Notes under the pieces: generated by a model
Databases searched by the model: none
The model's input: only the letters and a program-made list of their open reading frames with translations
Told to the model about the DNA's origin: nothing
Shown here: positions 4,367-49,414 of the stretch, piece after piece
How the letters are laid out: every line of letters begins with the position of its first letter
How positions within the stretch are numbered: the first letter of the stretch is position 1
Program-made: the position numbers and the translations under genes
Assembly (NCBI GenBank): GCA_041737595.1
Contig: JBGSRK010000013.1
Coordinates: forward strand, 1 to 61,328
Source of the DNA: Patescibacteria group bacterium
GTDB taxonomy: Bacteria; Patescibacteriota; CPR2; UBA1875
DNA: 61,328 nt
Direction: 5' to 3'

Positions 4367-4371
4367 AAGAC

Positions 4372-5958: not shown

Positions 5959-6581
5959 CTCCCTTCGAGGCGACGTGAGAAGTCATCCCAGATGAACTTC
6001 CCAATTGTGACTTCATCAGGCAAAGCATCAACGACAACGATCCGACCAGGATTCTCCTTCGCGATTGTATCGAAGCCGTTGGAAACACGATGATGGAACG
6101 CCATTTCCTCAAGATCGAAGGTCGTGTTCTCATCTTCGCGTCCGATTGCTCTCGGAACGCCGATCTCGGGGTCGATCTTGTTGTAGTAGGTGACGTCCGG
6201 AACCAAGCCCTGAATCGCGGCATTGTTGTACTGCTTCACATAGTAGATCGGTTGACCTCGACCATACCCCTGGTATGCAAGGGTTGAGTCGATATATCGA
6301 TCACACACTACATGAATCCCGGCTTCGAGCCACTTGTAGATCTGGTTGACGTGTAGTACTCGATCTGCTTCAAACAGGAATATCTCGGCCATAGAGCTGA
6401 GCTTCCTGGTCGGGTGCAGAAGTGCTTCCCTAATCGGGAGCGTCTCAGGAATCCCTCCAGGTTCCTTTGTCCAAACGTTTCGGATGTTCAGATTGTCGAG
6501 TTGGGCTTTGAGCCTCATCGACTGAGTGGTCTTACCTGATCCTTCGCCACCTTCAAAGGTGACAAATAGTCCTCTTTCCAT
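5955..6581 (-). CDS. tmk: Thymidylate kinase
   Basis: FVTFEGGEGSGKTTQ P-loop and DRYIDSTLAYQGYGRG. Start moved to ATG 6581 (GGAAGGAGGGG SD). GC-rich. Confidence 0.9.
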   Translation of the reverse strand: MERGLFVTFEGGEGSGKTTQSMRLKAQLDNLNIRNVWTKEPGGIPETLPIREALLHPTRKLSSMAEIFLFEADRVLHVNQIYKWLEAGIHVVCDRYIDSTLAYQGYGRGQPIYYVKQYNNAAIQGLVPDVTYYNKIDPEIGVPRAIGREDENTTFDLEEMAFHHRVSNGFDTIAKENPGRIVVVDALPDEVTIGKFIWDDFSRRLEGR

Positions 6582-6737
6582 TTCCCCTCCTTCCAATATG
6601 ATTTTCGGTGGTCAAAGTGCACAAAAACGACAGAAGATAACCTAAATCTTTCAGATTTGGTGCCCTCCTGTCGTTGTAATTGTCAATTACCAAGTTATAT
6701 TTATTTATAGTTATTGTAAATAGTTTTTTAATGAAGA

Positions 6738-6759
6738 GTGCCGCCCCGAAGGGCGGCAC
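6738..6759 (-). terminator. Stem-loop after the dcd-like gene
   Basis: GTGCCGCC-ccgaag-GGCGGCAC, 22 nt downstream of the stop, followed by only a weak U-run. Confidence 0.55.
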
Positions 6760-6780
6760 ATCAACGTCATACTTGGGAGG

Positions 6781-33364: not shown

Positions 33365-36300
33365 TTACTTTTTAACGGATATTCCGAATGTGATTTCTTT
33401 CCCGTCAAGTTTTACGGATTCATTATAAGTAGACGAAGAAACTCCGCGTTCAAATTTAACTGATAGGGTTTCATGTGCAATATATTTTGATTGAGATTCA
33501 ATCGCATGCGCAATTTCTGGGTCCACAGTTTCCCAAAATGTTTCAATCCTGTCCTCAACATTAAACTCAGCTTTTTTACGACCATCCTGAATAGAGCGGA
33601 TAAAGTCACGGGCCATACCCTCGGCCTTTAGCTCAGGTGAAATTTTTATATCAAGTAAGGTTTTAAAATCACTCCCCTTCTTAAGCTTAAGAGTTTTAAG
33701 ATTTACCTCCTCAAGTATTATATTAATTAAATCGTCTGGGAGTTTATTAATATTTGAGGTGACTTCAAGCGAGGCCAACGGCTGACGAACTTTGATCCCC
33801 TTTTCATTTCTTTCCGCAAGACCTGCCTCTACTATCTTTCTTACTAATATCATTTGTTCTTCTAACCCTGCATCAATTGCCTTTTTGTCTTCTTTTGGCC
33901 AGTTTGTAAGATGGATGGATTTAGAAGATTTTTTATCAATATCTCTAACAAGTCCTTGATACATTTCTTCTGTAACAAATGGCATATATGGCGCTAGCAA
34001 TTTTATATAAGTCGTAAGTGAAAAATATAAGGTTTCATATGCCGCAAGCTTATCATTATCATCTTCTGATTTCCAAAATCGTTTTCTTGAGCGACGAATA
34101 TACCAATTTGAAAGTTCATCTAAAAATTCTGAAAGATGTCTAGCACCAAGTGAAATATCATATTTTTCAAGCGATTCCGTAACTTCTGCGATTAATGTGT
34201 TAACTTTTGAAAGCATCCATTTGTCGAGCAAATTTTTAGAGTTCAATTTTCCGGCCCGCTTCGCCGAATCGAGGCGAGTTGGTTTAAAATCATCTAAACT
34301 TGCATACATCGTAAAAAAGCTGTAAGAATTCCAAAGTCTCAAGATTACCTTTTTTAAAACTTCGTCTACCTCCTTGTCAGAAAATTTTGTATCTTCTGCT
34401 TTTACTGCCGTTGATCCCATCATATAAAATCTCATTGCATCTGCTCCAAACCTATTCATAAGAATCATTGGATCAGTAAAATTATTTTTACTTTTAGACA
34501 TTTTATTACCATCTTCAGCAAGCACAATCCCATTTACAACCACATTATCAAACGGGGATTTATCAAAAAGAGCTGTTCCAAGAACCATAAGTGACCTAAA
34601 CCAACCTCGGGTCTGGTCAATCCCTTCTGCAATAAAATCTGCTGGAAATTCTCGAGCAAATTGTTCTTTGTTTTCAAAAGGATAGTGAAGCTTACCATAT
34701 GGCATCGAGCCAGAATCGAACCAAACATCTAAAATTTCACCAGATAATTTTGCAGTTTCTCCACATTTACATTTAATATCAATATCTTGAATTTTATGTA
34801 AATGAATATCATCGATTTTTTTGCCGGTTGCTTTTTCTAATTCAGAAATACTACCAAAAACTTTTATTTCTCCACAATCGCACTTCCAGGCAGGAATTGG
34901 GACCCCCCAAAAACGGTTTCGTGAGATATTCCAATCTGGGGCGGTTTCTACCATTTTTGCATAACGGTTTTTCCCAACAAATTCTGGGACCCAATGAACT
35001 TTTTTATTGTTCGCAAGAACCTTATCACGAATTTTATCAATATTAATAAACCAACTATCTATTGCCCTATAAATTAAAGGTGAATCACAACGCCAACAAT
35101 AAGGATATGGATGGGTATAATCTTCAACCTTAATTATTTTATCTCCTAAATCTTCAATAATTTTTTCGTTAGTTTTTGGATCAACTACACTCATACCATC
35201 ATAATCGGTTTCAGCCGTAAGATGACCAAGCTCATCAACAGGCATAAAAAAGTCGATACCAAATTTCTGTCCGACAATTGCATCGTCTTCACCAAAAGCA
35301 GGTGCAGTGTGAACAATTCCAGTCCCATCTTCGGTGGTTACAAAGTCACCAGAAATTACTTCAAAAGATTTCCCATTTGTTTTTTCCAAAAGTTGTGCTT
35401 TTTCATAATAACCAAAAAGTGGTTTGTATTTTTTACCAACCAGGTCTTTGCCCTTAAATTCAGCTATTAGCTTATAGCCAACTTGCTTTTCGGTCTCCTT
35501 ATTTGAGTCAACATAAACTGTTGGGCCTCCGAGCTCGGGTAAAATCATCAGATCTAATGTTCGACCAACACCTAGGGCATCCCTAGCTAAAATATACTTC
35601 TCGCCGCTATTAACTTCCTCTACTTTTACATAATCAATTTTCCCACCAACGGTTAACGCCAGGTTACCAGGGAGTGTCCATGGTGTTGTTGTCCAGGCAA
35701 GAAAATATGTACCCTTCTCATCCTCAAGTTCAAACTTAATTGTAACTGCTTTATCAGTTTTATCTTTATACCCACCTTCACTTACTTCAAAACTAGAAAG
35801 TCCAGTTGAACATCGTGGACAATAAGGCATAACCTTATGGCCTTCATAGACTAAATCTTTATTCCAAAGTTCTGAAAAAACCCACCAAATAGATTCCATA
35901 TAATTTTTATCCATTGTGATGTATGCATTTTCCATATCTGCCCAGCGACCCGTTCTTGCAATAACATTTTTCCAGGCTTCAACATAACCAAAAACCTTTG
36001 AGCGACACTTTTCATTAAATTTATCAACTCCGTACTCAAATATTTCGTCTCTGGATTTAAAACCGAGATCTTCTTCAACAATATTTTCAATTGGTAAACC
36101 ATGAGTGTCCCAACCCCAAATACGTTCGACTCGAAAGCCTTGCATCGTTTTATAACGAGGAATTACGTCTTTAATTAAACCAGCAAGAATATTCCCAAAA
36201 TGTGGCATATTGGTCGCATACGGCGGTCCATCATAAAAATTAAATGACTTTGATTTTGGTCTTTCTGAAATAGATTTTTCAAATATTTTATTTTTATCCC

Positions 36301-36367
36301 AAAATTCTAAAACTTTCTCTTCAAGTTCAGGAAAATTTACTCGCGATTCAGCTTTTTTAAAACTCAT
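33365..36367 (-). CDS. ileS: Isoleucyl-tRNA synthetase
   Basis: 1000 aa; PHFGNILAG (HIGH-type) and KMSKSKNN (KMSKS). Confidence 0.95.
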   Translation of the reverse strand: MSFKKAESRVNFPELEEKVLEFWDKNKIFEKSISERPKSKSFNFYDGPPYATNMPHFGNILAGLIKDVIPRYKTMQGFRVERIWGWDTHGLPIENIVEEDLGFKSRDEIFEYGVDKFNEKCRSKVFGYVEAWKNVIARTGRWADMENAYITMDKNYMESIWWVFSELWNKDLVYEGHKVMPYCPRCSTGLSSFEVSEGGYKDKTDKAVTIKFELEDEKGTYFLAWTTTPWTLPGNLALTVGGKIDYVKVEEVNSGEKYILARDALGVGRTLDLMILPELGGPTVYVDSNKETEKQVGYKLIAEFKGKDLVGKKYKPLFGYYEKAQLLEKTNGKSFEVISGDFVTTEDGTGIVHTAPAFGEDDAIVGQKFGIDFFMPVDELGHLTAETDYDGMSVVDPKTNEKIIEDLGDKIIKVEDYTHPYPYCWRCDSPLIYRAIDSWFINIDKIRDKVLANNKKVHWVPEFVGKNRYAKMVETAPDWNISRNRFWGVPIPAWKCDCGEIKVFGSISELEKATGKKIDDIHLHKIQDIDIKCKCGETAKLSGEILDVWFDSGSMPYGKLHYPFENKEQFAREFPADFIAEGIDQTRGWFRSLMVLGTALFDKSPFDNVVVNGIVLAEDGNKMSKSKNNFTDPMILMNRFGADAMRFYMMGSTAVKAEDTKFSDKEVDEVLKKVILRLWNSYSFFTMYASLDDFKPTRLDSAKRAGKLNSKNLLDKWMLSKVNTLIAEVTESLEKYDISLGARHLSEFLDELSNWYIRRSRKRFWKSEDDNDKLAAYETLYFSLTTYIKLLAPYMPFVTEEMYQGLVRDIDKKSSKSIHLTNWPKEDKKAIDAGLEEQMILVRKIVEAGLAERNEKGIKVRQPLASLEVTSNINKLPDDLINIILEEVNLKTLKLKKGSDFKTLLDIKISPELKAEGMARDFIRSIQDGRKKAEFNVEDRIETFWETVDPEIAHAIESQSKYIAHETLSVKFERGVSSSTYNESVKLDGKEITFGISVKK

Positions 36368-36711
36368 AATTTTATCTCTTTACCATATTTATCGTACCGA
36401 CCTTCAATTTTTTTAATTTTATCACTCAATGCCTTCTGAGGGTCAACCCCAACTAGTTCTGAAAGAATTAAGGTTGTTATAAGGACATCTGCAACTTCAC
36501 TTTCTATTTCTTCATGTTTATTGTTTTTTAATTTTTCTGATCGTTGTTTACCACATTTTTTTAAAACCTGTGAACATAATTCTCCGACTTCTTCAACCAA
36601 CTTAACTGTTGCAGAGAATTTAAGTTTATCCTCATCATAATCACTATAGTAATTAGAGATGAGGCGTTCGTTTTCGTTTTTAATAAATTTTAGTAAATCG
36701 TTAAATTCCAT
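36364..36711 (-). CDS. MazG-like NTP pyrophosphohydrolase (small all-alpha type)
   Basis: KLVEEVGEL......E.ESEVADVLITTLILSELVGVD; AAGGAG SD before ATG 36711. The stop overlaps the ileS start (ATGA). Confidence 0.65.
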   Translation of the reverse strand: MEFNDLLKFIKNENERLISNYYSDYDEDKLKFSATVKLVEEVGELCSQVLKKCGKQRSEKLKNNKHEEIESEVADVLITTLILSELVGVDPQKALSDKIKKIEGRYDKYGKEIKL

Positions 36712-36722
36712 ATACTCCTTAT

Positions 36723-36777
36723 AAAAAAACCACTTCTTGAGATCCGCCTGTTGGCGAAGGTACCATCTCAATAGTGG
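36723..36777 (-). terminator. Long hairpin + U7 immediately upstream of the mazG-like/ileS SD (attenuator-type leader terminator)
   Basis: Minus RNA CCACUAUUGAGAUGGUACCUUCGCC-aaca-GGCGGAUCUCAAGAAGUGG-UUUUUUU, then AUAAGGAGUAUAUG. There is no room for a promoter between the terminator and the SD. Confidence 0.6.
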
Positions 36778-36948
36778 AACTTAATTTTGACTTTTACGTT
36801 AGTCTTACGCTGAGTTCTAATTTAACGTCATTGCGAGAAGCTTGCGACGAAGCAATCTAGATCGCCACACTTTGTTCGCGATGACAGGTTATTTCTTCTC
36901 AGAGCTTGTGATTGATAGTCACTCAAATGCTTTAAATGTATTTTACAA

Positions 36949-37170
36949 CTAAATTCCCTTTATTCCAACTACTTTTTCTTTTGACGTTTTACCAATAATT
37001 ATTTCAATATTAGATTTCGGGACTTTAAAGAATCCCGAAAGCATTTCAACCACTTTTATATTTGCTCGACCGCCACTAGGAGAAACGTTAAAATAGCAAT
37101 TATAAATACCTTCGTATTCAATAACTTTTTCAAATTTTGATTTTGGATGTGCCTTAACAGTTATTTTCAT
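36949..37170 (-). CDS. DUF167/YggU-family small protein
   Basis: 73 aa: ...V.V.P.....GRANIKVVEMLSGFFKV.KSNIEII.GKTSKEKVV.I. Confidence 0.7.
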   Translation of the reverse strand: MKITVKAHPKSKFEKVIEYEGIYNCYFNVSPSGGRANIKVVEMLSGFFKVPKSNIEIIIGKTSKEKVVGIKGI

Positions 37171-37188
37171 ATAATCATTTTGAGAATA

Positions 37189-37446
37189 TTATTGATTTAA
37201 AAAATTCTTTATATCACCTGCTATTGGAATAACACCCCGCCATCTTTCAACTTCTGATCCATCATCTCTTACAATAATGAAAGTTGGGAATGAATATACA
37301 TCATAAAGTTCAATCTGTGATGATGTTTTTTCCTCTTCAATATCTAGATATTCAACTGAATATCCGTCTGTTTCTAATTTAGAACCAAACTCTTTTGCTT
37401 CTCGCATTTCTGGACCATTTTCTTTTGTAAATACTTTGACTATCAT
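37189..37446 (-). CDS. Thioredoxin-fold (glutaredoxin/NrdH-like) protein lacking the CxxC cysteines
   Basis: 85 aa with a beta-alpha-beta start (IVKVFTKENGPEMREAK, where CxxC normally sits), then ..YSFPTFII. Confidence 0.45.
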   Translation of the reverse strand: MIVKVFTKENGPEMREAKEFGSKLETDGYSVEYLDIEEEKTSSQIELYDVYSFPTFIIVRDDGSEVERWRGVIPIAGDIKNFLNQ

Positions 37447-37485
37447 TATAAATATTTTACACCTTCTAAATATAAATTAAACCCA

Positions 37486-37514
37486 TTGACAATAACTACA
37501 TTTTGTGATAACAT
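37486..37514 (+). promoter_or_regulatory. Promoter of the 37521-38327 RNA
   Basis: TTGACA (37486-37491), 17-nt spacer, TGATAACAT (37506-37514). Confidence 0.6.
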
Positions 37515-37520
37515 ATCTGC

Positions 37521-38327
37521 CAAGGTGAGACTACACCGGCAGGTAACCGTAAAGGGTCTTTAAACTCAGTGGCTTCGAGCCACAACGTGACCCACCTCGT
37601 TTGAGTAGTCATGTACCTTCCTCAGGAAACTGAGGAAAAACTAAAAAGGTATGGGGCAATGCTGTCGACCCCGAAAAAAAAGAAAATAAATATAATATCG
37701 ACAGCGCAATAAAAAAAGAATAAGTGGCGATAGGCCACTAAAGTGTTCGCCTTCGGGCGGCAACCCTCCCCTTGAATGCGACATTAGGGTGTCGTGGGAG
37801 CGGAATCATAGTTCTAGAGTGCAGGTCACACTCTTGGACAAAACAGACGGTTGGACTGATTGTAGCATGGCAAGACCCGAGAAAAAGCTCATCCCGAAGC
37901 CCATTGCACGAAATGACCAGGGAGAGAGTCGAGCCCTAAATCGACTTTCTCCGCTAGAAACTCCACGGCACTAGCTGCCGTTCCCCTGGAAATTACCGAG
38001 GAGGATAGTGTAATGAACCCGGAAGTGAAGCAAGCCGAGCCAGGGCGGTGAGCTGTCACTTCCAAGCACCTTAGAATCGATACGAGCAGGGAGTAAACCC
38101 ACCAAAAATCCTCTTTGGTACACGCTTTTTCAAGGGTGTGCTACTTGAGAAGTTACGCTCGTTCGAGAATGTCCCGGCGACACATACGGCACAGCCGTCG
38201 CAGTCGCTATTGACCCTTGCGCCAAAGTGCGCACGTAAATCCCGGGTCAGCATTTCACCGCCGCAAGGTGTGTAGAATTGTGGGGCAAGGGTGGCCCGGC
38301 GGTTATTCCGTCGGGCCTCTTTTTTTT
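37521..38327 (+). ncRNA. Large GC-rich structured RNA of about 800 nt, class unassigned
   Basis: No credible ORF. It runs on the strand opposite to both neighbours and has a strong promoter and terminator. Many tetraloop-capped hairpins are visible: CCUCAG-GAAA-CUGAGG, CGCC-UUCG-GGCG, GUGGC-uucga-GCCAC, GUGGC-gaua-GGCCAC, GGAAGUGA...UCACUUCC, CACC-gccgcaa-GGUG. An AT-rich loop is closed by UGCUGUCGA/UCGACAGCG. Confidence 0.6.
38293..38327 (+). terminator. Intrinsic terminator of the large RNA
   Basis: GGCCCGGCGG-uuauu-CCGUCGGGCC, then CU followed by U8. Confidence 0.8.
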
Positions 38328-38348
38328 AAAAAAAATAATTCAAATATT

Positions 38349-39083
38349 TTAAAAATTTTCTCTAATATTTACTTCTGTGACATATTTTTTCATAGTATCT
38401 GCAATTTCTTCTAAATCTTCTTTCTTAAATTTATCAGTCCCAAGTAAAGTTTTATCAAAAGTAACTTCATCTCGAAACCCTTGGATTGTGTATCTTTGGG
38501 CACCTTTTATTAATTCCCCCATTTCCATAAAATCAGAAATTTCATGAAAGGCAGGTAAAACTGTTGTTCGAAATTCGTGAGGTAACCCAGATTTTATAAT
38601 AATATCGATACTCTCTTTAATTTTTCCAACATCATCAAATCGTGATATCTGAGAATATTTCTTTAAAGGACCTTTTATATCCATCGCCACAAAATCTATC
38701 ATTTCAGAATCAATTAATCTTTTAAGTACAACTGGGTTTCCCCCATTAGTATCAAGTTTTACAGAAAAACCATGATCTTTTATTCTTGCAATAAAATTTT
38801 CCAAATCAATTTGGATAGTCGGCTCACCACCAGTAATAACAACTCCATCTAATTTTCCCTTTCGACTCTCAAGAAATTCAAAGAATTCAATTTCTGAGAG
38901 GTTTCCTTTATCAGGGTCGGACCCTGCAAACACAGGGTCCGACCCTGTGGCAGAGTAAGAAGGGATTAAATCTGGATTATGGCAAAAACCACATCTAAAA
39001 TTACAGCCCTGTGTAAAAACAACACAAGAAACTCGAGATGGATAATCTATAAGAGATGATTTAACAAGGCCACCTAATCGCAC
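38349..39083 (-). CDS. nrdG: Anaerobic ribonucleotide reductase activating protein (radical SAM) with an in-frame repeat-derived insertion
   Basis: SLIDYP......VFTQGCNFRCGFCHNP ... LDGVVITGGEPT. Likely GTG start at 39083 (GAGG 8 nt upstream). Confidence 0.85.
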   Translation of the reverse strand: MRLGGLVKSSLIDYPSRVSCVVFTQGCNFRCGFCHNPDLIPSYSATGSDPVFAGSDPDKGNLSEIEFFEFLESRKGKLDGVVITGGEPTIQIDLENFIARIKDHGFSVKLDTNGGNPVVLKRLIDSEMIDFVAMDIKGPLKKYSQISRFDDVGKIKESIDIIIKSGLPHEFRTTVLPAFHEISDFMEMGELIKGAQRYTIQGFRDEVTFDKTLLGTDKFKKEDLEEIADTMKKYVTEVNIRENF

Positions 39084-39094
39084 AGCTATACCTC

Positions 39095-39162
39095 GTCATT
39101 CCGGACTTGATCCGGAATCTATATTAATAAAACAGTGGATCCTGAATCAAGTTCAGGATGAC
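39095..39162. repeat. Two REP units (GTCATTCCGGACTTGATCCGGAATCTA; GGATCCTGAATCAAGTTCAGGATGAC)
   Basis: Same family, located between nrdG and the small nrdD fragment. Confidence 0.8.
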
Positions 39163-39169
39163 AAAACCT

Positions 39170-39328
39170 CTATTCGCAATCGCAAACACTGAATTCTGTT
39201 CTGTCGGCAAATTCTGCTTGCTTACCTTCATTCCATTGTTGTACTGGTCTGATATAACCAACAACTCTTGAATAGACCTCACAAGGCGTTCTTTGCGCTT
39301 CTAGCGCGTTTAATTCTTGGTTTGTCAT
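39170..39328 (-). CDS. Stand-alone glycyl-radical domain of class III RNR (52 aa)
   Basis: ...TPCEVYSRVVGYIRPVQQWNEGKQAEFADR matches the NrdD C-terminal glycyl-radical motif (R..GY...WN.GK..E...R). It has its own GGAGG SD 8 nt before ATG 39328. The longer track ORF N-terminus (to 39397) is REP-encoded. Confidence 0.7.
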   Translation of the reverse strand: MTNQELNALEAQRTPCEVYSRVVGYIRPVQQWNEGKQAEFADRTEFSVCDCE

Positions 39329-39347
39329 CTTAGGCTCCTCCCTTTTT

Positions 39348-39395
39348 ATTCCGGTTTTATTCCGGAATCTAGATTCCCGCTTTCGCGGGAATGAC
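39348..39395. repeat. REP units separating the two nrdD pieces
   Basis: ATTCCGGTTTTATTCCGGAATCTAGATTCCCGCTTTCGCGGGAATGAC, beginning 3 nt after the stop of the large nrdD ORF. Confidence 0.8.
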
Positions 39396-39398
39396 ACA

Positions 39399-41534
39399 TT
39401 AACTTTTAATTTTTACTTTTTTCTTTTTATTACTTAATAAATCTAATTGTTCGTTCCATCCAATTTCTTGATCACAAATCGGACAAAATTTATGTTCTCC
39501 TGCAAGATAACCATGAGTTGGGCAAACAGAAAATGTTGGAGAAATAGTAAAGTAAGGCAAGTGATAATTTTCAGCAATTTTTCGAATAAGATTTTTTACT
39601 GCTTCTACATCATCAAGTTTTTCACCAATAAATCCGTGTAAAACCGTACCACCTGTGTATAATGTTTGGAGCCCATCCTGGAGATCAAGTGCCTCAAAAA
39701 TATCATCAGTAAAACCAACAGGAAGAGCAGTTGAGTTAGTGTAATAAGGTTTTGCGTTTAGGGTTCGATATGCCTCATCGTTCGCAACCAAAATATCTTT
39801 ATACTGTTCTGTGTCTCTTTTAGCAAATCTATAAGTTGTGCCTTCCCCAGGTGTGGCCTCAAGATTATAAATATTCCCAGTCTCTTCTTGATAACCGGCG
39901 ATTCTATCTCGCATAAAATTCATCACTTTAATAGAGAATGCATGTCCTTTTTTTGTAGTAATATCTTCTTTTTTACCTAAAAAGTTTGTAATTGATTCAT
40001 TCATTCCTAAAAGCCCAATTGTTGAAAAGTGGTTTGCCCAATATCTTCCAAATCTCTTTTTTATATCAACTAAATAATAACGTGCAAATGGGTAAAGACC
40101 ACCCTCCATATATCTTTCAAGAATTTTTCTCTTAATCTCAAGTGATTCTTTTGATATGTCCATTAAATATGTGAGTCTTTCAAAATAATCTTTTTCATTT
40201 TTTGCTAAATATCCAAGCCGAGGCATATTTATAGTAACAACCCCAACAGAGCCAGTTAGTGGGTTTGAACCAAATAAACCACCACCACGTTTTCTTAATT
40301 CTCGGTTATCAAGTCTTAATCTACAACACATTGAACGTGCATCATCTGGTGACATGTCAGAATTAATAAAATTAGAAAAATATGGAATTCCATATTTTGC
40401 CGTCATTTCCCAAACAGATTTTAAAACTGGATTATTCCAATTAAAATCTTTGGTAATGTTGTAAGTTGGGATTGGGAATGAAAAAATTCTACCTTGCGCA
40501 TCCCCTTCAAGCATAACCTCTGCAAAAGCCTCGTTAATCATGTCCATCTCTTTTTGAAAATCTTTATATTTTTCAGGTTTAACTTCCCCACCAACTACAA
40601 CATTTTCATTAGCAAGTTCCCCTACTGGGGTCAAATCCATTGTGATATTAGTAAAAGGAGTTTGGAAACCAACCCGGGTTGGAATATTCATACCATAAAC
40701 GAATTCCTGCATTGCCTGTTTTACTTGTTTATAATCAAGGTTGTCATATCTTACAAAAGGAGCAACTAAAGTATCAAAGCTAGAAACCGCTTGTGCCCCA
40801 GCGGATTCTCCTTGCATTGTGTACATAAAGTTTACTAATTGGTTAAGCATCGCCTTTATATGTTTTGGAGGTCTTGATGTAATTTTCCCCGGTACTCCAC
40901 CAAACCCACGAATAATTAGTTCTTTAAGATCCCAACCACAACAATAGGTTGATAGATAACCTAAATCATGGATATGTAAATCTGCATTAAGATGTCCTTC
41001 TTTGATATTTTTTGGATAAAGTTTATCGAGCCAATATTTTTCTGTAATTTGTGCAGAAACATAATTATTAAGTCCCTGGAGAGAGTAAGTCATATTTGAG
41101 TTTTCTTTGACTTTCCAATCTCCCTGAGAAAGGTAATCTTCCATTAAAACCGCTGAATCTAAAAGATTTGCCTTCCTTAAATTTTCATGTTGTCTTCGGT
41201 AAACAATATATGATTTTGCAGTTTCTTCAAAAACAGAATCCATTAGGATGTGTTCAACAACATCCTGTACTTTTTCAACCGTTGGAAGGTTGTGGGCATC
41301 AAACTGACGATGAAGATGAGCAGAAACTTGTTCTGATAATTTCCCAGCAATTTTTTGATTAAATTCACCCGTCGCCTCACCGGCTTTAGTAAGGGCAAGT
41401 GTAATTTTTTCTAACTCAAATTTTGCAATTTTACCATCGCGTTTAATTATCTTATCAAAAGGCTTTCTCTCGGTATATTTTTTTCCGATTGCAAGCGTTT
41501 CTTGTTTTTCTTGATTTTCAGTTTTTTTGGCCAC
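39399..41534 (-). CDS. nrdD: Anaerobic (class III) ribonucleoside-triphosphate reductase, large piece lacking the glycyl-radical tail
   Basis: N-terminal ATP-cone (IIKRDGKIAKFELEKI), a long catalytic core, and a C-terminal Cys/His cluster (CPTHGY...FCPICD). It ends in a K-rich tail with no RxxGY motif. Confidence 0.9.
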   Translation of the reverse strand: MAKKTENQEKQETLAIGKKYTERKPFDKIIKRDGKIAKFELEKITLALTKAGEATGEFNQKIAGKLSEQVSAHLHRQFDAHNLPTVEKVQDVVEHILMDSVFEETAKSYIVYRRQHENLRKANLLDSAVLMEDYLSQGDWKVKENSNMTYSLQGLNNYVSAQITEKYWLDKLYPKNIKEGHLNADLHIHDLGYLSTYCCGWDLKELIIRGFGGVPGKITSRPPKHIKAMLNQLVNFMYTMQGESAGAQAVSSFDTLVAPFVRYDNLDYKQVKQAMQEFVYGMNIPTRVGFQTPFTNITMDLTPVGELANENVVVGGEVKPEKYKDFQKEMDMINEAFAEVMLEGDAQGRIFSFPIPTYNITKDFNWNNPVLKSVWEMTAKYGIPYFSNFINSDMSPDDARSMCCRLRLDNRELRKRGGGLFGSNPLTGSVGVVTINMPRLGYLAKNEKDYFERLTYLMDISKESLEIKRKILERYMEGGLYPFARYYLVDIKKRFGRYWANHFSTIGLLGMNESITNFLGKKEDITTKKGHAFSIKVMNFMRDRIAGYQEETGNIYNLEATPGEGTTYRFAKRDTEQYKDILVANDEAYRTLNAKPYYTNSTALPVGFTDDIFEALDLQDGLQTLYTGGTVLHGFIGEKLDDVEAVKNLIRKIAENYHLPYFTISPTFSVCPTHGYLAGEHKFCPICDQEIGWNEQLDLLSNKKKKVKIKS

Positions 41535-45435: not shown

Positions 45436-45513
45436 AAGCTAAGTAGATTATATACATTTGGTATACAAATTAAAAGTAGTTTATTTTATTTGTTATTCTC
45501 TTTTCCCCCAAAT

Positions 45514-45594
45514 GTCATTCTGAGCGGAGCGAAGAATCTAATAATAGATCCTTCATATTCATTCAGGATGACAGCCCGATAGATTCAATATGAC
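45514..45594. repeat. REP units (GTCATTCTGAGCGGAGCGAAGAATCTA; GATCCTTCATATTCATTCAGGATGAC; AGATTCAATATGAC)
   Basis: Same family, at the left border of the GC-rich array. Confidence 0.75.
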
Positions 45595-45675
45595 AAATAT
45601 AAATGAAAATGGCGGACTAAAGTTCGGGTTTCCCCGTTCCTTAGCCCGCCGTGTCTAACAGATCGTGTTGTTGGT

Positions 45676-46422
45676 CTACTTGTCGCCGGCCACAGTCGTG
45701 TACTCCTTCGGCTTCTGCGGAAGCTTGTGCAAGCTCCAGCCTGCCTCCTTCAGCAGAACCTTGAAACTCTCGAGGTTACCATGGTAGATGGCATCCTTGA
45801 GAGCCACGATCCAAGGATAGAGCTTGTGCTGAGAGGCGATAACCATCACCTCTGCACCTTGAACCTTGAAGTAATCCTCAAGGGAGAAAGGATAGCCATC
45901 GCGGCAAACATCGGTAATGGCCTGAAGGGCCATTGCCTTGTCGGACCCCGCCATGACAACTTGGGCAGCGACGCCGTACTCGACCTCGAGAAGCCTCTCC
46001 AAGCCCATGTAGCCGTCCTCATCGTTGATCATCCCGAGAACTTTCGTAACGATCGCACTTCGAGATGTCAACTGAGAGAGAATGACTTGCTCGATGCCCC
46101 TCAAGCTGGCAACCTTCGATGTAGCCTCGAACAACTCTTCGATACTATCCGGAGGGGTGTCCACAAGCTTCTTGACCTCCTCGACCATCTCGACGAAACA
46201 GCCGCAAACATCTTCGCAGTCACTCTGTTCATGACTTGCGATGTACATCTCGAGCTCTTTGATCGTCTCTCGATTGAGCTCAAGTGAAACACCTGCCTCC
46301 TTCGCCAACTCGGCGAGGGTGACAACCGTTTCAAGGCGGTTGTTAGTCGTGTTCACTCTCTTCAAGAGTGATGAGGTAACTCCTGCTCTTGCCATTTCTC
46401 TCCAATCATCGTATTTGTACAC
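45676..46422 (-). CDS. GC-rich orphan protein, array module I (248 aa; start GTG 46422 or ATG 46395)
   Basis: Long ORF in a GC-rich block with no recognisable motif. A 3' hairpin lies at 45611-45650. Confidence 0.6.
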   Translation of the reverse strand: MYKYDDWREMARAGVTSSLLKRVNTTNNRLETVVTLAELAKEAGVSLELNRETIKELEMYIASHEQSDCEDVCGCFVEMVEEVKKLVDTPPDSIEELFEATSKVASLRGIEQVILSQLTSRSAIVTKVLGMINDEDGYMGLERLLEVEYGVAAQVVMAGSDKAMALQAITDVCRDGYPFSLEDYFKVQGAEVMVIASQHKLYPWIVALKDAIYHGNLESFKVLLKEAGWSLHKLPQKPKEYTTVAGDK

Positions 46423-46480
46423 TTCACACAGAAGTATTCTCCCCTCCCAGGTTTCTTCTGTGTTTTTTGATCTGTTTTTA

Positions 46481-46608
46481 CAAGTTGCACTGCAGTAACT
46501 AATCTGCAGATTTTATCTATTGTCATTCTGAACTTGATTCAGAATCTAGTATAAATATTATCTGAAGATTAGGTAAAGCTGGTGCCACTCTGTGAACAGA
46601 GCGACACC
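46481..46608 (-). repeat. Inter-module structured repeat, copy 1
   Basis: CAAGTTGCACTGCAGTAA-CTAATCTGCAGAT (46499-46511) ... REP unit ... ATCTGAAGATTAG (46560-46572), then a GC hairpin. Confidence 0.8.
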
Positions 46609-46633
46609 ATAGTGCGATTCAACAAGAACACCT

Positions 46634-46915
46634 TCAGTTAGCATCTTGCGAGTACACCGAGTTAAGCCTTGCAACGACTTCTTTGACTGAGCCGTCGACA
46701 CGTACCTTCAGTTCTGGACCCTTTGGAATGGGGATGCCCTTGAGAATGAGATAGCTACTCTCGTTTGGCATGTCGAGCCCATTGTAGTAAAAGGTTCCTG
46801 CATCAATCACTTGCCCCACTTCTTCGGGATCAACACTGTAATCCTCAGTTCTGCTGAAAATGTTGTCTTGCCCATCCTCTTCTACAACTACTCTCTCAAG
46901 CAGTACCTTCTTCAT
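46634..46915 (-). CDS. GC-rich orphan protein, module II second gene (93 aa)
   Basis: The start lies 8 nt after the stop of 46924-47307, with a GAGG SD in the gap. A 3' hairpin lies at 46581-46608. Confidence 0.6.
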   Translation of the reverse strand: MKKVLLERVVVEEDGQDNIFSRTEDYSVDPEEVGQVIDAGTFYYNGLDMPNESSYLILKGIPIPKGPELKVRVDGSVKEVVARLNSVYSQDAN

Positions 46916-46923
46916 GATATACC

Positions 46924-47307
46924 TCAGTTATCTTCGTTTATAGGGGATCTTGCCACTCGCATCAACACATAGTTCTCAACAGTTGCACTCGCAGCCTTAA
47001 GAGAAACTATGAATGGTTCTTCCGAACCACCCATAATATCATAAACCGCGAGTTTGTAGTAACGAGAGAAAAGCTCCTCGTACGATTCGTCCCATGCCGA
47101 AATCTCATCCATACCATCCTGACATTTCTGTTTCGCTCTCATTAAGAGAGTTTGCAGAAAATCTGTCTCAAAGATGATCTGTTTTACGAGTTCCCGACGA
47201 GATAGTTCGTAATCTATGATTAGCCCTCCAGTTATCACTATAAAAAGAGTGACTAATACGAGAAAGAAAATCCCCAGTATTACAAATGCCGATATTATGG
47301 CGTCCAT
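46924..47307 (-). CDS. GC-rich orphan membrane-anchored protein, module II first gene (127 aa)
   Basis: Start moved to ATG 47307 (GGGAG 8 nt upstream). N-terminal TM helix AIISAFVILGIFFLVLVTLFIVITGGLII. Confidence 0.6.
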   Translation of the reverse strand: MDAIISAFVILGIFFLVLVTLFIVITGGLIIDYELSRRELVKQIIFETDFLQTLLMRAKQKCQDGMDEISAWDESYEELFSRYYKLAVYDIMGGSEEPFIVSLKAASATVENYVLMRVARSPINEDN

Positions 47308-47350
47308 ACTAATCACTCCCGTCTGGGTATCGATGTATGTCGACTTATTC

Positions 47351-47491
47351 AAGTTGCACTGCAGTAATTAACCTGCAGATAGTTCATTTTGTTTATAGAT
47401 TCTGAATCAAGTTCAGAATGACAAAAGGATTTTATCTGAAGATTAGTGATTGTGGTGGGTGAGGTTCGGATTGCTCCGTTCCCCACCCACC
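47351..47491 (-). repeat. Inter-module structured repeat, copy 2
   Basis: AAGTTGCACTGCAGTAAT-TAACCTGCAGAT (47368-47380) ... inverted REP unit ... ATCTGAAGATTAG (47434-47446), then a GC hairpin nearly identical to that of copy 4. Confidence 0.8.
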
Positions 47492-47514
47492 GTACTCAAC
47501 TGATCGTCTTGTGG

Positions 47515-47883
47515 TTAGCCTGTATAAGGCATAACCTTAGTTGAGTTGTGATTCGGCGAGCGCATGAGCTCACCGTTCGACTCCCGGATCTTCCCCAAGA
47601 GAAATTTCTGATCCCTGACCCGCTTAAGGAGCGAGTCAGGGGGCAGTGAATCATCCTTCGCGGCGTCCACAAGTTCGTGGATAACCTCGAAGAAGACCCT
47701 TGGGGATTTCTTCTTCACCACGACGATCTCGTGGCGTCGTTCTATCTCATTGATCACGGGCCCAGAAAAGGCACCCGAATAACCTGCCTCCTCAAGCATG
47801 TGACAGGACGTGAAAATCAGTGTCCTTGTGTCCAAACGGTTGAACCCTAGAAGCCCAAGCTCGCGTGCACTTTCATCGTTCAT
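47515..47883 (-). CDS. GC-rich orphan protein, module III (122 aa)
   Basis: GGGAGGG SD 4 nt before ATG 47883. A 3' hairpin lies at 47452-47490. Confidence 0.6.
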   Translation of the reverse strand: MNDESARELGLLGFNRLDTRTLIFTSCHMLEEAGYSGAFSGPVINEIERRHEIVVVKKKSPRVFFEVIHELVDAAKDDSLPPDSLLKRVRDQKFLLGKIRESNGELMRSPNHNSTKVMPYTG

Positions 47884-47929
47884 AATGCCCTCCCTGAGTT
47901 GATCCCTTCCGGGACATTTTCTGAGTAAA

Positions 47930-48049
47930 GCTACTTGCAGCTTAGAATTAGCTCAAAGGCTATTAGTCTAATCTGCAAATCTTTGTACAATTTTATTGTT
48001 CAATTTGATTTGAAGATTAGGTGATGTGCGCGGAACGAGGTCCGCGCAC
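47930..48049 (-). repeat. Inter-module structured repeat, copy 3 (divergent, no REP core)
   Basis: CTAATCTGCAAAT (47968-47980) ... ATTTGAAGATTAG (48008-48020), then a GC hairpin. Confidence 0.7.
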
Positions 48050-48069
48050 GTTTTCACCCGAGAGATGGT

Positions 48070-48546
48070 TCAGTCGAACATGTGGCAAGCTGAGCACGAC
48101 TTAGGGTTTGGGTTCCTGCAGTCGGTGCAGTCTGCCGCATATCGCGGCTCTAGACCAGGGGCCATTGAGTAGGCCTCGTCGTAATCGTACTCGTCCGGAT
48201 AAGAATCTCCGAACATTACGTCGGGATCACGGCTCATCTGCTGCCAAACAAGGTCCATAATCTCGATACTTGCTCGCTCTTCGAGCTTGCGCTCTGCATA
48301 GCTAATCGCGCAGTTCCGGACCCTGTGAATGATCTCCGTCTGCAACTCCATGGAGGTGCAGTTGTAGTCATCAAGCGAGTCCCAATATGCACTATCTTCG
48401 CCGTCTCTTTCCAGAAGACTTTTATACGTCCTCATGGAACGATCATAGGCGCCTTTGTGAATTAGTTCTTTAACCTCTGGCATTGCCAGAAGATCAGCCT
48501 GAGTCATACCAGGCTCTACCATGATGCCACAAGGCAGACGCAGCAT
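48070..48546 (-). CDS. GC-rich orphan protein, module IV second gene (158 aa), C-terminal CxxC-x7-CxxC
   Basis: The ATG lies 1 nt after the stop of 48548-48730 (TGAaATG). It ends ...CTDCRNPNPKSCSACHMFD. A 3' hairpin lies at 48026-48049. Confidence 0.6.
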   Translation of the reverse strand: MLRLPCGIMVEPGMTQADLLAMPEVKELIHKGAYDRSMRTYKSLLERDGEDSAYWDSLDDYNCTSMELQTEIIHRVRNCAISYAERKLEERASIEIMDLVWQQMSRDPDVMFGDSYPDEYDYDEAYSMAPGLEPRYAADCTDCRNPNPKSCSACHMFD

Positions 48547-48547
48547 T

Positions 48548-48730
48548 TCAGTTCACCTTCCTGTCGAGGTAGATTCCCAGTAGAACTGCGCCCGTTAGAA
48601 CATCGTGCACCCTGTCTGACATCTGTATAAATATCAGAGCTACGATGATAGAGATGATGAATATGTTATAGACAGCTTCGACTGCGGCTGTTAAAGCCGC
48701 AGCCCTTCTTTCTGACATTCTTGAGCTCAT
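48548..48730 (-). CDS. GC-rich small membrane protein, module IV first gene (60 aa)
   Basis: Start moved to ATG 48730 (GGGGGG SD). Hydrophobic core VYNIFIISIIVALIFI. Confidence 0.5.
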   Translation of the reverse strand: MSSRMSERRAAALTAAVEAVYNIFIISIIVALIFIQMSDRVHDVLTGAVLLGIYLDRKVN

Positions 48731-48760
48731 TTTCCCCCCCATTTTTCTCGGGTGTATATT

Positions 48761-48921
48761 CAAGTTACACTGCAGTAACTAACCTGCAGATTTTATTCAT
48801 TGTCATTCTGAATTTGGCTGGCCCGAGGCGGACTCGCCCAGGGATTCAGAATCTATAAATATTATCTGAAGATTAGTGATTGTGGTGGGTGAGGTTTGGA
48901 TTGCTCCTTCCCCCACCCACC
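48761..48921 (-). repeat. Inter-module structured repeat, copy 4
   Basis: CAAGTTACACTGCAGTAA-CTAACCTGCAGAT (48779-48791) ... REP unit with a nested GC insertion ... ATCTGAAGATTAG (48864-48876), then a GC hairpin. Confidence 0.8.
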
Positions 48922-48948
48922 AAATTCGAAACCCAAAACGCATTGAGG

Positions 48949-49305
48949 TTACTTCTTGCGCCGAAACTCAGCTATCTTGGGCACACCATTTTTATCCGTG
49001 AAGACAAAAACGGTGTCACCGACCTCTATTCCAAGGTCAGTTGGGGGAAGAGCCACCGGCACTTCCTCAAATTCTGCCACGACGACTTCTTCGTAAATGG
49101 CAGTGACGGTACCTCCTTGGTGATAGCCAGACCAGAGTAGAGGCGTAAGGAAGAATGCGATAAGAGCTACAACCACAGCAGCTGTTATCAGAAACCCCTT
49201 TGCAGTTCCTTTCGAATACGTCATTAGTGCCATCAGCGCCACAATGATAAGGGCAATGATAGCCAAGACAAGCGGTCCCGTTAGCCAAGCTTCCCAGATA
49301 ATCAT
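48949..49305 (-). CDS. GC-rich orphan 2-TM protein, module V (118 aa)
   Basis: Start moved to ATG 49305 (AAGGGAGG SD). TM helices PLVLAIIALIIVALMALM and FLITAAVVVALIAFFLTPLL. A 3' hairpin lies at 48885-48920. Confidence 0.6.
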   Translation of the reverse strand: MIIWEAWLTGPLVLAIIALIIVALMALMTYSKGTAKGFLITAAVVVALIAFFLTPLLWSGYHQGGTVTAIYEEVVVAEFEEVPVALPPTDLGIEVGDTVFVFTDKNGVPKIAEFRRKK

Positions 49306-49383
49306 TATTCCTCCCTTGAACGTATTGGATATTGATCGCGTTGGTTTCGAATTCAAGTTACTTGTCCACAAAGTGAACTAAGT

Positions 49384-49412
49384 AATTTAACATATATTTA
49401 TATAAAAGTCAA
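49384..49412 (-). promoter_or_regulatory. Promoter upstream of the GC-rich array
   Basis: Minus strand TTGACT (49412-49407), 17-nt spacer ending TGT, TAAATT (49389-49384). It starts 3 nt after the map stop. Confidence 0.55.
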
Positions 49413-49414
49413 TA

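Follow-up and report, generated by a model that had tools for sequence, protein, structure and literature searches.

A putative large structured non-coding RNA of a size-variable family, encoded beside an 85-aa thioredoxin-fold gene in Patescibacteria

The window, meaning the whole 61,328-nucleotide stretch of DNA that was analysed, contains a GC-rich island at 37486-38327 on the plus strand, with a G+C content of 46-52% against about 30-35% in its surroundings (0.46-0.52 across 37501-38400 versus 0.28-0.36 on both flanks). The island holds a putative RNA gene at 37517..38327 (+) of about 807-811 nt, recognized by its composition, its fold z-score, the absence of a conserved ORF and a full-length homolog at a second locus, L035. 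The promoter (37486..37514, +) consists of a -35 box TTGACA (37486-91), a 17-nt spacer ending in TGA as an extended -10 element, and a -10 box TAACAT (37509-14); it matches at 10 of 12 positions and is the top promoter-like site in a 3-kb scan. Transcription is inferred to start at about 37519-37522. The intrinsic terminator (38293..38327, +) has the form GGCCCGGCGG-UUAUU-CCGUCGGGCC at 38293-38317 followed by U8, its 10-bp stem containing nine G-C pairs and closing a 5-nt loop. The strong, sigma-70-type promoter and the terminator bound a discrete transcript, for which no expression data are available. The RNA overlaps neither neighbouring ORF, and no complementarity to other parts of the window was found. 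The -35 box lies just 39 nt from the start codon of the divergent gene for an 85-aa thioredoxin-fold protein. Another GC-rich stretch, at 45.4-49.4 kb, was considered as a further RNA and rejected, as it looks like protein genes.

Within the RNA gene the longest start-to-stop ORF is 61 aa and the longest stop-to-stop frame 92 aa in code 11, rising to 118-129 aa in codes 4, 25, 15 and 16 and to 231 aa in the ciliate code 6; the genes on either side read normally in code 11. Comparison with L035, the closest homolog (positions 146-980 of that locus, 84% identical), revealed no conserved frame, the open frames switching between both sequences, and the indels separating the two RNAs measure 1, 2, 10, 16, 18, 19 and 26 nt and are not multiples of three. 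Substitutions between this pair are three times rarer in paired columns.

The minimum free energy of the RNA is -301.6 kcal/mol, with z = -6.1 on the plus strand versus -4.5 on the minus strand relative to shuffled sequences. The consensus fold gives -235 kcal/mol on the plus versus -214 kcal/mol on the minus strand, and G.U accounts for 35 of 388 pair cells. Long-range pairings and the register of helix D remain unresolved. The predicted fold includes a pairing of a 5' RGGUG with the CACCY of a conserved block; it is possible in most members and too short to test.

A 5' domain of about 400 nt is common to the window RNA, L035 and L036. It begins with a three-way domain (37522..37619, +) formed by P1, AAGGU (37522-26) with ACCUU (37615-19), P2, GACUAC/GUAGUC, and P4, GGGUC/GACCC, and containing a conserved bulge ACCGUAA. 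The domain is kept in all three RNAs; its helices 1-4 are paired in 89-100% and double changes occur in P2 and P4. Within it, hairpin HP1 (37569..37583, +), GUGGC-UUCGA-GCCAC, has an invariant loop on a covarying stem, a U-A pair being replaced by C-G in L036 with UUCGA unchanged. The loop is inferred to resemble a T-loop. The same UUCGA contains the palindrome UCGA. The next hairpin (37620..37635, +), CCUCAG-GAAA-CUGAGG, corresponds to CCCGG-UUCG-CCGGG in L036, with two pairs changed on both sides. The hairpin at 37661..37705 (+), GCUGUCGA/UCGACAGC, has eight Watson-Crick pairs and one G.U around a 29-nt A-rich loop; L035 shows one compensated pair (A-U to G-C) and L036 a complete turnover of the stem, with GAAAAAGCU/AGCUUUUUC around a 23-nt A-rich loop. 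Further downstream in the extension lie, all on the plus strand, GUGGC-GAUAG-GCCAC (37724-37738), UCGCC-UUCG-GGCGG (37747-37760) and CUCCC...GGGAG enclosing GCGACA-UUAGGG-UGUCGU (37766-37800); these helices 7-10 are 100% paired, each with one to three pairs changed on both sides. A long hairpin (37921..37952, +; helices 11-12), GGAGAGAGUCGA-GCCCUAAA-UCGACUUUCUCC, is followed by the conserved GCUAGAAAC. Its L036 equivalent is GGAG..AGGAGC-CCAA-GCUCCU..CUCC, followed by GCCUAGAAC.

The part common to the family is a core of about 400 nt, composed of a hairpin H1, the single-stranded block AAGCACCUUAGAA, a helix BC with an insert, and a helix D. H1 (38021..38063, +), GGAAGUGA...UCACUUCC, lies directly 5' of the block; a hairpin of different sequence occupies this position in all eight aligned homologs, and all six basal pairs are changed on both sides. 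The block itself (38064..38076, +) was located by a profile of AAGCACCUUAGAA plus the next strand that was built without the window RNA or L035: its top match in the window is 38062-38087 (E = 4.9e-4), the next best having E = 32. The 10-mer GCUCGUUCGA follows 70 nt after the match, as in L003 and L008. Helix BC (38077..38166, +) pairs UCGA-U-ACGAGC (38077-87) with GCUCGU-UCGA (38157-66) and closes a variable insert of 69 nt (38088-38156), which is 25-100 nt long in homologs. Its inner six base pairs (ACGAGC/GCUCGU) are invariant in eight of eight sequences, whereas the flanking helices covary freely; the outer four base pairs are ACAA/UUGU in L002 and include a U-A in L033, where the helix also gains one extra U-A pair. 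The 3' multi-helix domain in the D position (38167..38292, +) is closed by GUCCC (38171-75)/GGGGC (38282-86) and encloses GGCGAC..GUCGCU, UGACCC..GGGUCA with an inner hairpin UGCGC/GCGCA, and a GCAA-capped hairpin. This domain rests on the fold of the window RNA and the consensus fold with L035, against which the register of helix D is uncertain; in every homolog a helix of differing sequence begins 1-5 nt after helix BC. The family is defined by H1, single-stranded (A)AGCACCUU(A)GAA, the helix UCGA.ACGAGC/GCUCGU.UCGA with a variable insert, and helix D, and the window RNA has all four at 38021-38292. A motif suited to searches for the RNA would be of the type CCAAGGTGAGAC-N77-CATGTACCTT.

Several resemblances noticed in the RNA were rejected. 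For an internal tandem duplication (5' CCAAGGUGAGAC...GUACCUU versus CCAGGGAGAGAG...GCACCUU) the local alignment score was 21, whereas shuffled sequences averaged 22.5. The motif CACCU(U/C) is not kept in L003, L038 and L033, so that anti-Shine-Dalgarno mimicry is not supported, and an SRP-like GGAAGUGAAGCA and a sarcin-ricin-like UACGAGCAGG are judged coincidental, with no model match and no conservation.

Helices of the RNA are kept by compensatory changes. In the alignment of the 5' domain, 59 pairs are 97% paired and 16 are changed on both sides, versus 5.4 +/- 1.8 in shuffles (0 of 500) and 0-1 in slid controls. The core alignment comprises 25 pairs, 99% paired, again with 16 changed on both sides, versus 6.9 +/- 1.7 in shuffles (0 of 500) and 2-5 in slid controls. 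Global MAFFT alignments of all homologs were unusable, and the alignments were instead adjusted manually to the proposed helices, N standing in for the loops; they are biased towards structure, and the shuffle counts are not probabilities. Homology between the loci became apparent only by eye and with block profiles. Neither nhmmer nor blastn, run with the window RNA as single query, returned anything from the first syntenic loci or from the window itself, and a profile of blocks C and D failed because its D part was poorly aligned. A mini-core covariance model, R1, whose loops had been shortened to four Ns, missed the window core (best matches at E of about 4-9, elsewhere). The real loops and inserts are 27-120 nt long, and the miss is therefore put down, by inference, to the design of the model and not to absent homology; no confirmation by a covariance model remains.

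Homologous genes of 411-835 nt with the same type of promoter were found on eight other distinct contigs of related Patescibacteria (L002, L003/4, L007/8, L033, L035, L036, L037 and L038), each lying upstream of the 85-aa gene, on the same strand. The known family thus amounts to only nine distinct sequences, two of them truncated. The promoter design TTGACA-17-TGnTAnnAT precedes all homologs, and all complete homologs end in a G+C-rich hairpin and a U-run; the feature, recurring with the same signals in relatives, is more than chance. Forms of 411, 472, 534, about 540, 623, 683, 811 and 835 nt are built around one core. Whole domains have been gained or lost around it, and the window copy, with its extra 5' domain of about 400 nt, is a large form of a size-variable family. 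The RNA evolves faster than the flanking proteins, single-sequence nhmmer failing between loci whose NrdG is 74-77% identical.

The 85-aa gene adjoins the RNA gene, divergently and with the RNA upstream, in nine of nine distinct RNA-bearing contigs; the two are direct neighbours in all but L037, which has one gene in between. In every case the RNA gene diverges from the 85-aa gene and converges with the upstream gene. The latter encodes a DUF6580 protein in L037 and L038 and is nrdG in the window, L035, L002, L003 and L007/8; in L036 and L033 the contig ends before this flank. The nrdG flank varies while the 85-aa neighbour is constant, so adjacency to the nrd operon is inherited gene order and not a functional link. 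Three relatives (L005, L006 and L012) have no RNA gene at the site, and without it a gap of 12-48 nt lies between nrdG and the 85-aa gene, which look co-transcribed. Given these absences, the RNA gene is either dispensable or mobile within genomes. Each locus has a single copy, and the 165 kb of fetched DNA contain no other; the gene's constant position beside the 85-aa gene fits vertical descent with losses. Scans for the 85-aa protein gave one relative in the genome collection and two in the metagenome collection. The family is rare, and its members so far come from one narrow part of the candidate phyla radiation (CPR), a Saccharibacteria/Howlettbacteria-like branch.

Searches against known families were negative. 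At the gathering score, cmscan of the whole window against Rfam 15 reported only an L10 leader; at E <= 10 the RNA region gave only chance matches to small RNAs, mostly on the terminator, and the eight homolog loci at E <= 0.1 only weak T-box matches elsewhere. Covariance models for GOLLD, ROOL, OLE, HEARO and raiA matched neither the window RNA nor its homologs. ARAGORN detected no tRNA or tmRNA in the 61-kb window, and the RNA has no tRNA-like ends, its 3' end being the intrinsic terminator. Of RNase P, no GGAAAGUCC/ACAGAA P4 strands were seen and there was no match to RF00010, RF00011 or RF00373 at E <= 10. A group II intron is not indicated in the RNA region, which has no intron-model match, no ORF above 61 aa and no exon context. 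No match to the RNA was found by blastn among 50,697 phage records, and three motif scans of IMG/VR viral contigs gave 19, 0 and 16 matches, all by chance. No paper describing the RNA was found in the literature searched. The RNA is very likely a member of a genuine, so far undescribed family of structured RNAs.

An earlier note, made from the sequence alone, had claimed a stand-alone structured non-coding RNA of about 807 nt, antisense to its neighbours, with a TTGACA-N17 promoter, a terminator and no plausible ORF. These claims held, all coordinates included, and the RNA call is strengthened by the homologs and by covariation. The hairpins it listed, CCUCAG-GAAA-CUGAGG, GCC-UUCG-GGC, GGAAGUGA/UCACUUCC and GAGAGAGUCGA/UCGACUUUCUC, are all present. 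Its GAUA tetraloop failed, GUGGC-GAUAG-GCCAC being a pentaloop, and its AT-rich 45-nt loop on a 9-bp stem held in part, the loop being 29 nt and the ninth pair a G.U. Its statement that RNase P, tmRNA and group II domain V signatures are lacking was borne out by Rfam and ARAGORN. The lack of similarity to a second large RNA that it had placed at 3687-4366, now corrected to about 3690-4372 on the minus strand, held too. On checks that it had proposed, no Rfam family matches the window RNA or its relatives, compensatory changes occur in both the 5' domain and the core, and synteny is kept with the thioredoxin-like gene on all nine contigs and not constantly with nrdG. The position next to the nrd operon was correct for the window, with DUF6580 in place of nrdG in L037 and L038. 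Beyond that note are the finding that the window copy is a large form of a size-variable family and the finding that related genomes can lack the gene.

The reading preferred here is that an independent transcription unit at 37517-38327 (+) encodes a large and highly structured non-coding RNA. As a whole, together with the inferred mode of action, this explanation is held with moderate confidence, with neither experiments nor expression data behind it. The RNA would act in trans as a folded molecule, rather than through antisense or cis-regulatory action. Its functional centre is inferred to be the invariant junction around helix BC (a partner-binding, tertiary or active site), and the variable hairpins, A-rich linkers and GNRA and T-loop-like loops would build a peripheral architecture. 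By analogy with OLE, ROOL and GOLLD, the molecule may be an architectural or scaffolding RNA, working as a ribonucleoprotein or as an RNA-only assembly. Such a mechanism is possible, and assembly is itself inferred: the A-rich linkers, the GCAA- and GAAA-capped hairpins and the invariant UUCGA loop are hints only, and the analysis turned up neither a conserved partner protein nor, in the shared core, any self-complementary loop that is conserved. The data do not specifically favour scaffolding over catalysis or protein sequestration. A bolder reading, which remains a possibility, is that the RNA represents a wholly new modular 'ornate' class specific to this CPR branch, whose invariant core has a novel RNA function in these minimal, host-dependent cells; if true, the function could be catalytic or that of a protein-free self-assembling particle, and the RNA would be a lineage-defining machine and not a regulator.

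Among the rival explanations, two are regarded as unlikely. The RNA could be a ribozyme, with the helix BC junction and the single-stranded AAGCACCUUAGAA as active site and the periphery stabilizing it, as in RNase P or group I/II introns. Large ribozymes typically combine such a size with a modular periphery and a small core of invariant sequence, and inner helix BC is invariant in all eight sequences amid freely covarying helices; however, there is no Rfam ribozyme match, no evident flanking exon or substrate and no processing-site signature, and some relatives lack the gene at the site. Alternatively, a very strong antisense unit between nrdG or DUF6580 and the 85-aa/DUF167 genes could act in cis as a transcriptional insulator or by interference, uncoupling or tuning the expression of these genes, with the product of minor importance. 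The apparent co-transcription of nrdG and the 85-aa gene at a spacing of 12-48 nt without the RNA, the constant convergent and divergent orientations, and the 39 nt between -35 box and start codon in the window fit this. Against it, insulation does not need 400-800 nt of compensatorily kept helices, and the RNA spares both neighbouring ORFs and carries its own efficient terminator.

The remaining rivals are weaker still. It is very unlikely that the RNA is a divergent housekeeping RNA (RNase P RNA, tmRNA, SRP RNA or 6S RNA) missed by the models. A core of about 410 nt and a stand-alone gene of predicted high expression would fit RNase P or tmRNA, and CPR lineages often carry divergent RNAs, but none of these families matches at E <= 10 in the window copy or E <= 0.1 in the homologs, ARAGORN found no tmRNA, P4 strands and tRNA-like ends are lacking, the 3' end is a terminator, evolution is faster than that of the flanking proteins, and three relatives miss the gene at the site. 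A mobile or selfish RNA element, or what is left of one (degenerate intron, retroelement RNA or IS-linked guide RNA), inserted into an operon is equally improbable. Patchy presence among close relatives, interruption of what would otherwise be an operon in opposite orientation and a GC content differing from the host speak for it; against it stand the absence of a nearby reverse transcriptase, transposase or nuclease gene, of group I/II intron, HEARO or similar model matches and of phage-record or viral-contig matches, the single copy per locus with none elsewhere in 165 kb, the constant place beside the 85-aa gene and a housekeeping-type promoter of its own. That the region is no RNA gene at all, and instead a decayed or horizontally acquired GC-rich coding fragment or one read in another genetic code, is all but excluded. 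Other GC-rich islands of the window do encode proteins (thyX, tmk and dcd at 4594-7920), but here the longest frame is 92 aa in code 11, frames are not kept in L035, indels are not multiples of three, stems show compensatory changes and the neighbours use code 11 normally.

Very few bacterial non-coding RNAs above about 400 nt have complex conserved folds, and every one of them has brought new insight; RNase P and the self-splicing introns among them are catalysts. An RNA of up to 0.8 kb, predicted to be highly transcribed and taking up about 0.1% of the genome, suggests a real benefit, because CPR genomes are tiny yet keep the gene. What is new is a large RNA family with its core and its linkage to the 85-aa gene; the broad kind, ornate large RNAs, is already known. 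The family forms a natural deletion and insertion series around one core, which makes it attractive for solving the structure and for finding out which parts the RNA cannot do without.

The second large RNA, at about 3690-4372 on the minus strand, has a length of about 680 nt, a fold z-score of -5.9 and no Rfam family. It resembles the present one in lying in the same genome in a GC island, with a TTGACT-17-TGnTATTAT promoter and a terminator. The two share no sequence blocks, and a sub-threshold tRNA-like element occurs only in the other RNA. That a single 61-kb window has two unrelated large RNAs suggests more unexplored structured RNA in these organisms than family libraries show. RNase P RNA (RF00010/RF00011) is comparable in that peripheral helices vary around a small conserved core, the core measures about 400 nt, the gene stands alone behind a strong promoter, and T-loop-like and GNRA-type modules occur. 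It differs in that none of its conserved regions CR-I to CR-V, nor the P4 helix, is present here, no model matches at E <= 10, and the present RNA evolves faster and is absent at the site in some relatives. GOLLD and ROOL typically occur near tRNA genes and in phages or prophages. The present RNA has no match to the GOLLD (RF01998) or ROOL (RF03087) models, no tRNA within 61 kb, no match in the phage records or viral-contig scans and a fixed chromosomal neighbourhood, but shares with them a length of 0.5-0.8 kb, an ornate multi-hairpin build, A-rich linkers, GNRA-type loops and a patchy distribution. ROOL and GOLLD self-assemble without protein, and OLE, ROOL and GOLLD form RNA-only assemblies (PMC12286853). 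OLE RNA (RF01071) shows no sequence or structure match to the window RNA, occurs in extremophilic Firmicutes and is usually linked to oapA, a partner not seen here; the present family also varies two-fold in length. The likeness to OLE lies in a stand-alone bacterial non-coding RNA of about 0.6 kb with many conserved helices, narrow hosts and a function that long remained unclear, and OLE forms higher-order complexes (PMC12286853).

The RNA gene at approximately 37517-38327 (plus strand) is very likely genuine and represents a new family, absent from Rfam 15 and from the literature searched. All of its neighbours lie on the minus strand. These are the genes for IleRS (33365-36367), a MazG-like protein (36364-36771), a DUF167 protein (36949-37170) and an 85-aa protein with a faint thioredoxin signal (37189-37446; E = 0.04), and, beyond the RNA 3' end, nrdG (38349-39083), a 75-aa ORF encoding the C-terminal glycyl-radical piece of NrdD (39170-39397) and nrdD (39399-41534). 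Neither adjoining gene is overlapped; the gaps are 39 nt on one side (-35 box to 85-aa start codon) and 22 nt on the other (end of the U-run to nrdG stop codon). The nearest named relatives of the flanking proteins are assigned to 'Patescibacteria group bacterium', 'Candidatus Saccharibacteria' and 'Candidatus Howlettbacteria'. The glycyl-radical C-terminus of the anaerobic ribonucleotide reductase (RVVGY motif) is split off into its own small ORF (48-93 aa) immediately following nrdD, an arrangement conserved in related contigs (L003 3066-3221, L005 1448-1606, L007 2767-2913). A Logan contig of 2132 nt (L001, SRR28170473) is 100% identical to window 37034-39165 (nrdG, RNA and 85-aa gene), which means that this sequencing run sampled the same organism.

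The G+C content is 45-52% at 37501-38400 versus 28-36% in the flanking genes. In a consensus scan the neighbourhood's best promoter candidate was 37486-37514 (+; TTGACA, 17-nt spacer with a TG extension, TAACAT; 10/12 consensus positions), which is inferred to be of the strongest type, and a terminator was placed at 38293-38327 (+; 10-bp hairpin with 9 G-C pairs, then eight U). The 808-nt transcript has a folding energy of -301.6 kcal/mol; relative to dinucleotide shuffles its z-score is -6.1, and that of the opposite strand is -4.5. The earlier note had called a GC-rich, 'ornate' RNA of about 800 nt, and all hairpins it named were found. Two details failed: the supposed GAUA tetraloop is a pentaloop, GAUAG, and the A-rich loop has 29 nt, not 45. 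The strand is fixed as plus by the conserved promoter and terminator. The consensus fold reaches -235 kcal/mol on the plus and -214 kcal/mol on the minus strand, and G.U occupies 35 of 388 pair cells, which would be A.C if read on the other strand. On the minus strand, 37739-37723, hairpin HP4 (GUGGC-GAUAG-GCCAC) with its A-rich linker reads as a terminator-like hairpin plus U-run, which would probably end read-through transcription from nrdG within the RNA gene.

A look-up of contigs with closely related NrdG, 85-aa and IleRS proteins revealed GC-rich, ORF-poor inserts that lie upstream of the 85-aa gene and run in the opposite direction. A TTGACA/extended -10 promoter precedes every homolog, and wherever the copy is complete its 3' end is formed by a G+C-rich hairpin and a U-run. 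The copies measure 835 nt (L035, 84% identity with the window RNA), 683 nt (L037, divergent), 623 nt (L002), about 540 nt (L038), 534 nt (L003/L004), 472 nt (L007) and 411 nt (L008); contig ends limit L036 and L033 to the first 557 and 525 nt. On its other side the RNA gene borders nrdG in the window, L035, L002, L003 and L007/8, and a DUF6580 gene in L037 and L038. Three contigs (L005, L006, L012) lack the RNA at this site, with only 12-48 nt between nrdG and the 85-aa gene; the RNA is thus linked to the 85-aa gene side and not to nrd. The gene is also inferred to have been lost, gained or moved several times. The 85-aa protein profile had only 75 matches in 5.8 billion proteins. Scans of 185,579 species genomes and of JGI metagenome contigs gave one relative and two relatives, respectively; in the collections searched with this protein, the lineage bearing its gene is rare. 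Contig L034 carries an approximately 300-nt GC-rich element (2100-2400; 50-59% G+C) immediately upstream of a remote homolog (45% identical) of the 85-aa gene, with a hairpin plus U-run beside that gene, without the conserved block B of the family and without an Rfam match; this could be either another kind of small RNA or a much reduced relative.

The shared core of approximately 400 nt comprises the entire L008 RNA and corresponds to window 37915-38327. It contains hairpin H1 (38021-63), a single-stranded AAGCACCUUAGAA segment (38064-76), helix BC (UCGA-U-ACGAGC, 38077-87, with GCUCGU-UCGA, 38157-66), which closes an insert of 25-100 nt, and helix D, which begins 1-5 nt past helix BC (all plus strand), followed by more hairpins and the terminator. 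A 5' extension of approximately 400 nt (37520-37915), common to the window RNA, L035 and L036, contains a three-way domain whose closing helix is AAGGU/ACCUU; two hairpins, one with an invariant UUCGA loop and one whose tetraloop is UUCG in L036 and GAAA in the other two; another with an A-rich loop of 23-29 nt; and several additional hairpins with A-rich linkers between them. L037 and L038 have different 5' additions, and share with L003 the block UGGCAGGSGUUGYCAGUCSCGYCACC. A tandem-duplication origin of the 5' extension was not supported.

Because single-sequence nhmmer found no link between the window RNA and the shorter homologs, homology was tested separately with a block profile (H1 end, single-stranded segment and 5' strand of helix BC) built only from L002, L003, L007, L008 and L033. 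Its best match in the 61-kb window was 38062-38087 (+; E = 4.9e-4), the runner-up having E = 32. The sequence GCUCGUUCGA, which matches the 3' strand of L003 and L008 exactly and is complementary to the block, lies 70 nt downstream of the match. An 8-sequence profile gave one match per complete RNA-bearing locus and none elsewhere in 165 kb of fetched DNA. As block match, position, strand and promoter agree, homology to the shorter RNAs is well supported.

Both covariation alignments were hand-fitted to the proposed helices, with N in place of loops and inserts, and were ungapped after MAFFT. In the 5' domain (window RNA, L035, L036; 59 pairs, 97.1% of cells paired) both sides had changed in 16 pairs versus 5.4 +/- 1.8 in shuffles (0/500), and slid controls gave 0-1 doubly changed pairs with 36-45% pairing. 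The A-rich-loop hairpin, excluded from this run, adds 8 pairs, every one different in L036 yet paired. For the core, eight sequences gave 25 pairs with 99.4% of cells paired; both sides had changed in 16 of these, versus 6.9 +/- 1.7 in shuffles (0/500) and 2-5 in slid controls. H1 and helix D change at all pairs, and outer helix BC covaries (ACAA/UUGU in L002, U-A in L033). Inner helix BC (ACGAGC/GCUCGU) is invariant except for two G.U pairs and one C.U mismatch (L002); L033 has an extra U-A pair inserted there. Between the window RNA and L035, substitutions affect 6.4% of paired versus 20% of unpaired columns and leave every predicted pair intact; indels measure 1, 2, 10, 16, 18, 19 and 26 nt. 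The alignments are biased to the proposed structure, the sequences are few and related, and the shuffle results should not be read as probabilities. The register proposed for helix D when the window RNA is set against L035 is tentative, as are all long-range pairings.

Rfam 15 at gathering score yielded only an L10 leader in the whole window. At E <= 10 the RNA region gave only chance matches to small RNAs, mostly at the terminator, and at E <= 0.1 the eight homolog loci gave only weak T-box matches upstream of ileS. The T-box-like matches before mazG/ileS (L036 1411-1558, L037 3500-3642; 28-29 bits, E ~0.01-0.02) are well under the gathering score, and none was found in window 36300-37250. 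Nothing in the literature searched describes an RNA of this sort from CPR bacteria.

A second large RNA called in the earlier note (3690-4372, minus strand) has a TTGACT-17-TATTAT promoter with a TG extension (4400-4372), a terminator-like hairpin GACGAGGAGCCCUUCGUC followed by UUUU (~3716-3690) and a fold with z = -5.9. It includes a sub-threshold tRNA-like element with a GGUUCGA T-loop (4145-4213, minus; 26.3 bits versus a gathering score of 29, E = 0.004) and the string GGAAAGUCC, yet has no RNase P match. A 4-kb GC-rich stretch between ftsA and map (45436-49414; 43-55% G+C) holds six minus-strand ORFs of 93-248 aa, the four tested having no Pfam match, with intergenic CACTGCAGTAACTAAYCTGCAG hairpins at 46473, 47342 and 48753, a 63-nt repeat at 47429 and 48859, and four copies of TATCTGAAGATTAG; it probably resembles an acquired gene cassette array more than RNA. 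L002 has merely ~1 kb of GC-rich DNA at the matching position. A second GC-rich block (4594-7920; ~50-53% G+C) carries ThyX-like, thymidylate kinase and dCTP deaminase genes, a nucleotide-metabolism cluster foreign in composition to the remaining window, and a single ORF of 2393 aa occupies the window end (54042-61223, minus).

Function has not been shown. A trans-acting folded RNA is the favoured inference, because helices are under selection along the full length, a small core is invariant in sequence, peripheral domains are gained and lost freely, the adjoining genes are neither overlapped nor complementary, and the promoter is of the strongest type. Coding DNA is all but excluded: no ORF >61 aa lies inside the region, those frames that stay open are short and do not keep the same phase from the window RNA to L035, and codes 4, 25, 15 and 16 give no open frame >129 aa, only ciliate code 6 reaching 231 aa. 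A cis-acting transcriptional insulator inside a former nrdG-to-85-aa operon would account for an RNA gene that always converges on the upstream gene and diverges from the 85-aa gene, but leaves the covariation unexplained and is unlikely. A catalytic RNA (ribozyme) is likewise improbable. A divergent housekeeping RNA is very unlikely, ARAGORN having found no tRNA or tmRNA in the 61 kb, and so is a mobile-element remnant; phage records contained nothing resembling the RNA.

The preferred reading of its role, with low confidence and no functional data, is a scaffold or assembly RNA centred on the helix BC junction. Its known distribution is narrow, and mechanism is beyond the reach of sequence alone. 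Three things make it of real interest to RNA biologists: how large it is, the series of natural lengths between 411 and 835 nt, and its presence in a minimal CPR genome that bears another, unrelated large RNA 33 kb away. The new family belongs to a known broad kind, the large structured bacterial RNAs of unknown function. It is like RNase P in its conserved core and variable periphery, and its nearest analogues in behaviour are OLE, ROOL and GOLLD, 'ornate' RNAs which form RNA-only dimers or cages (PMC12286853).
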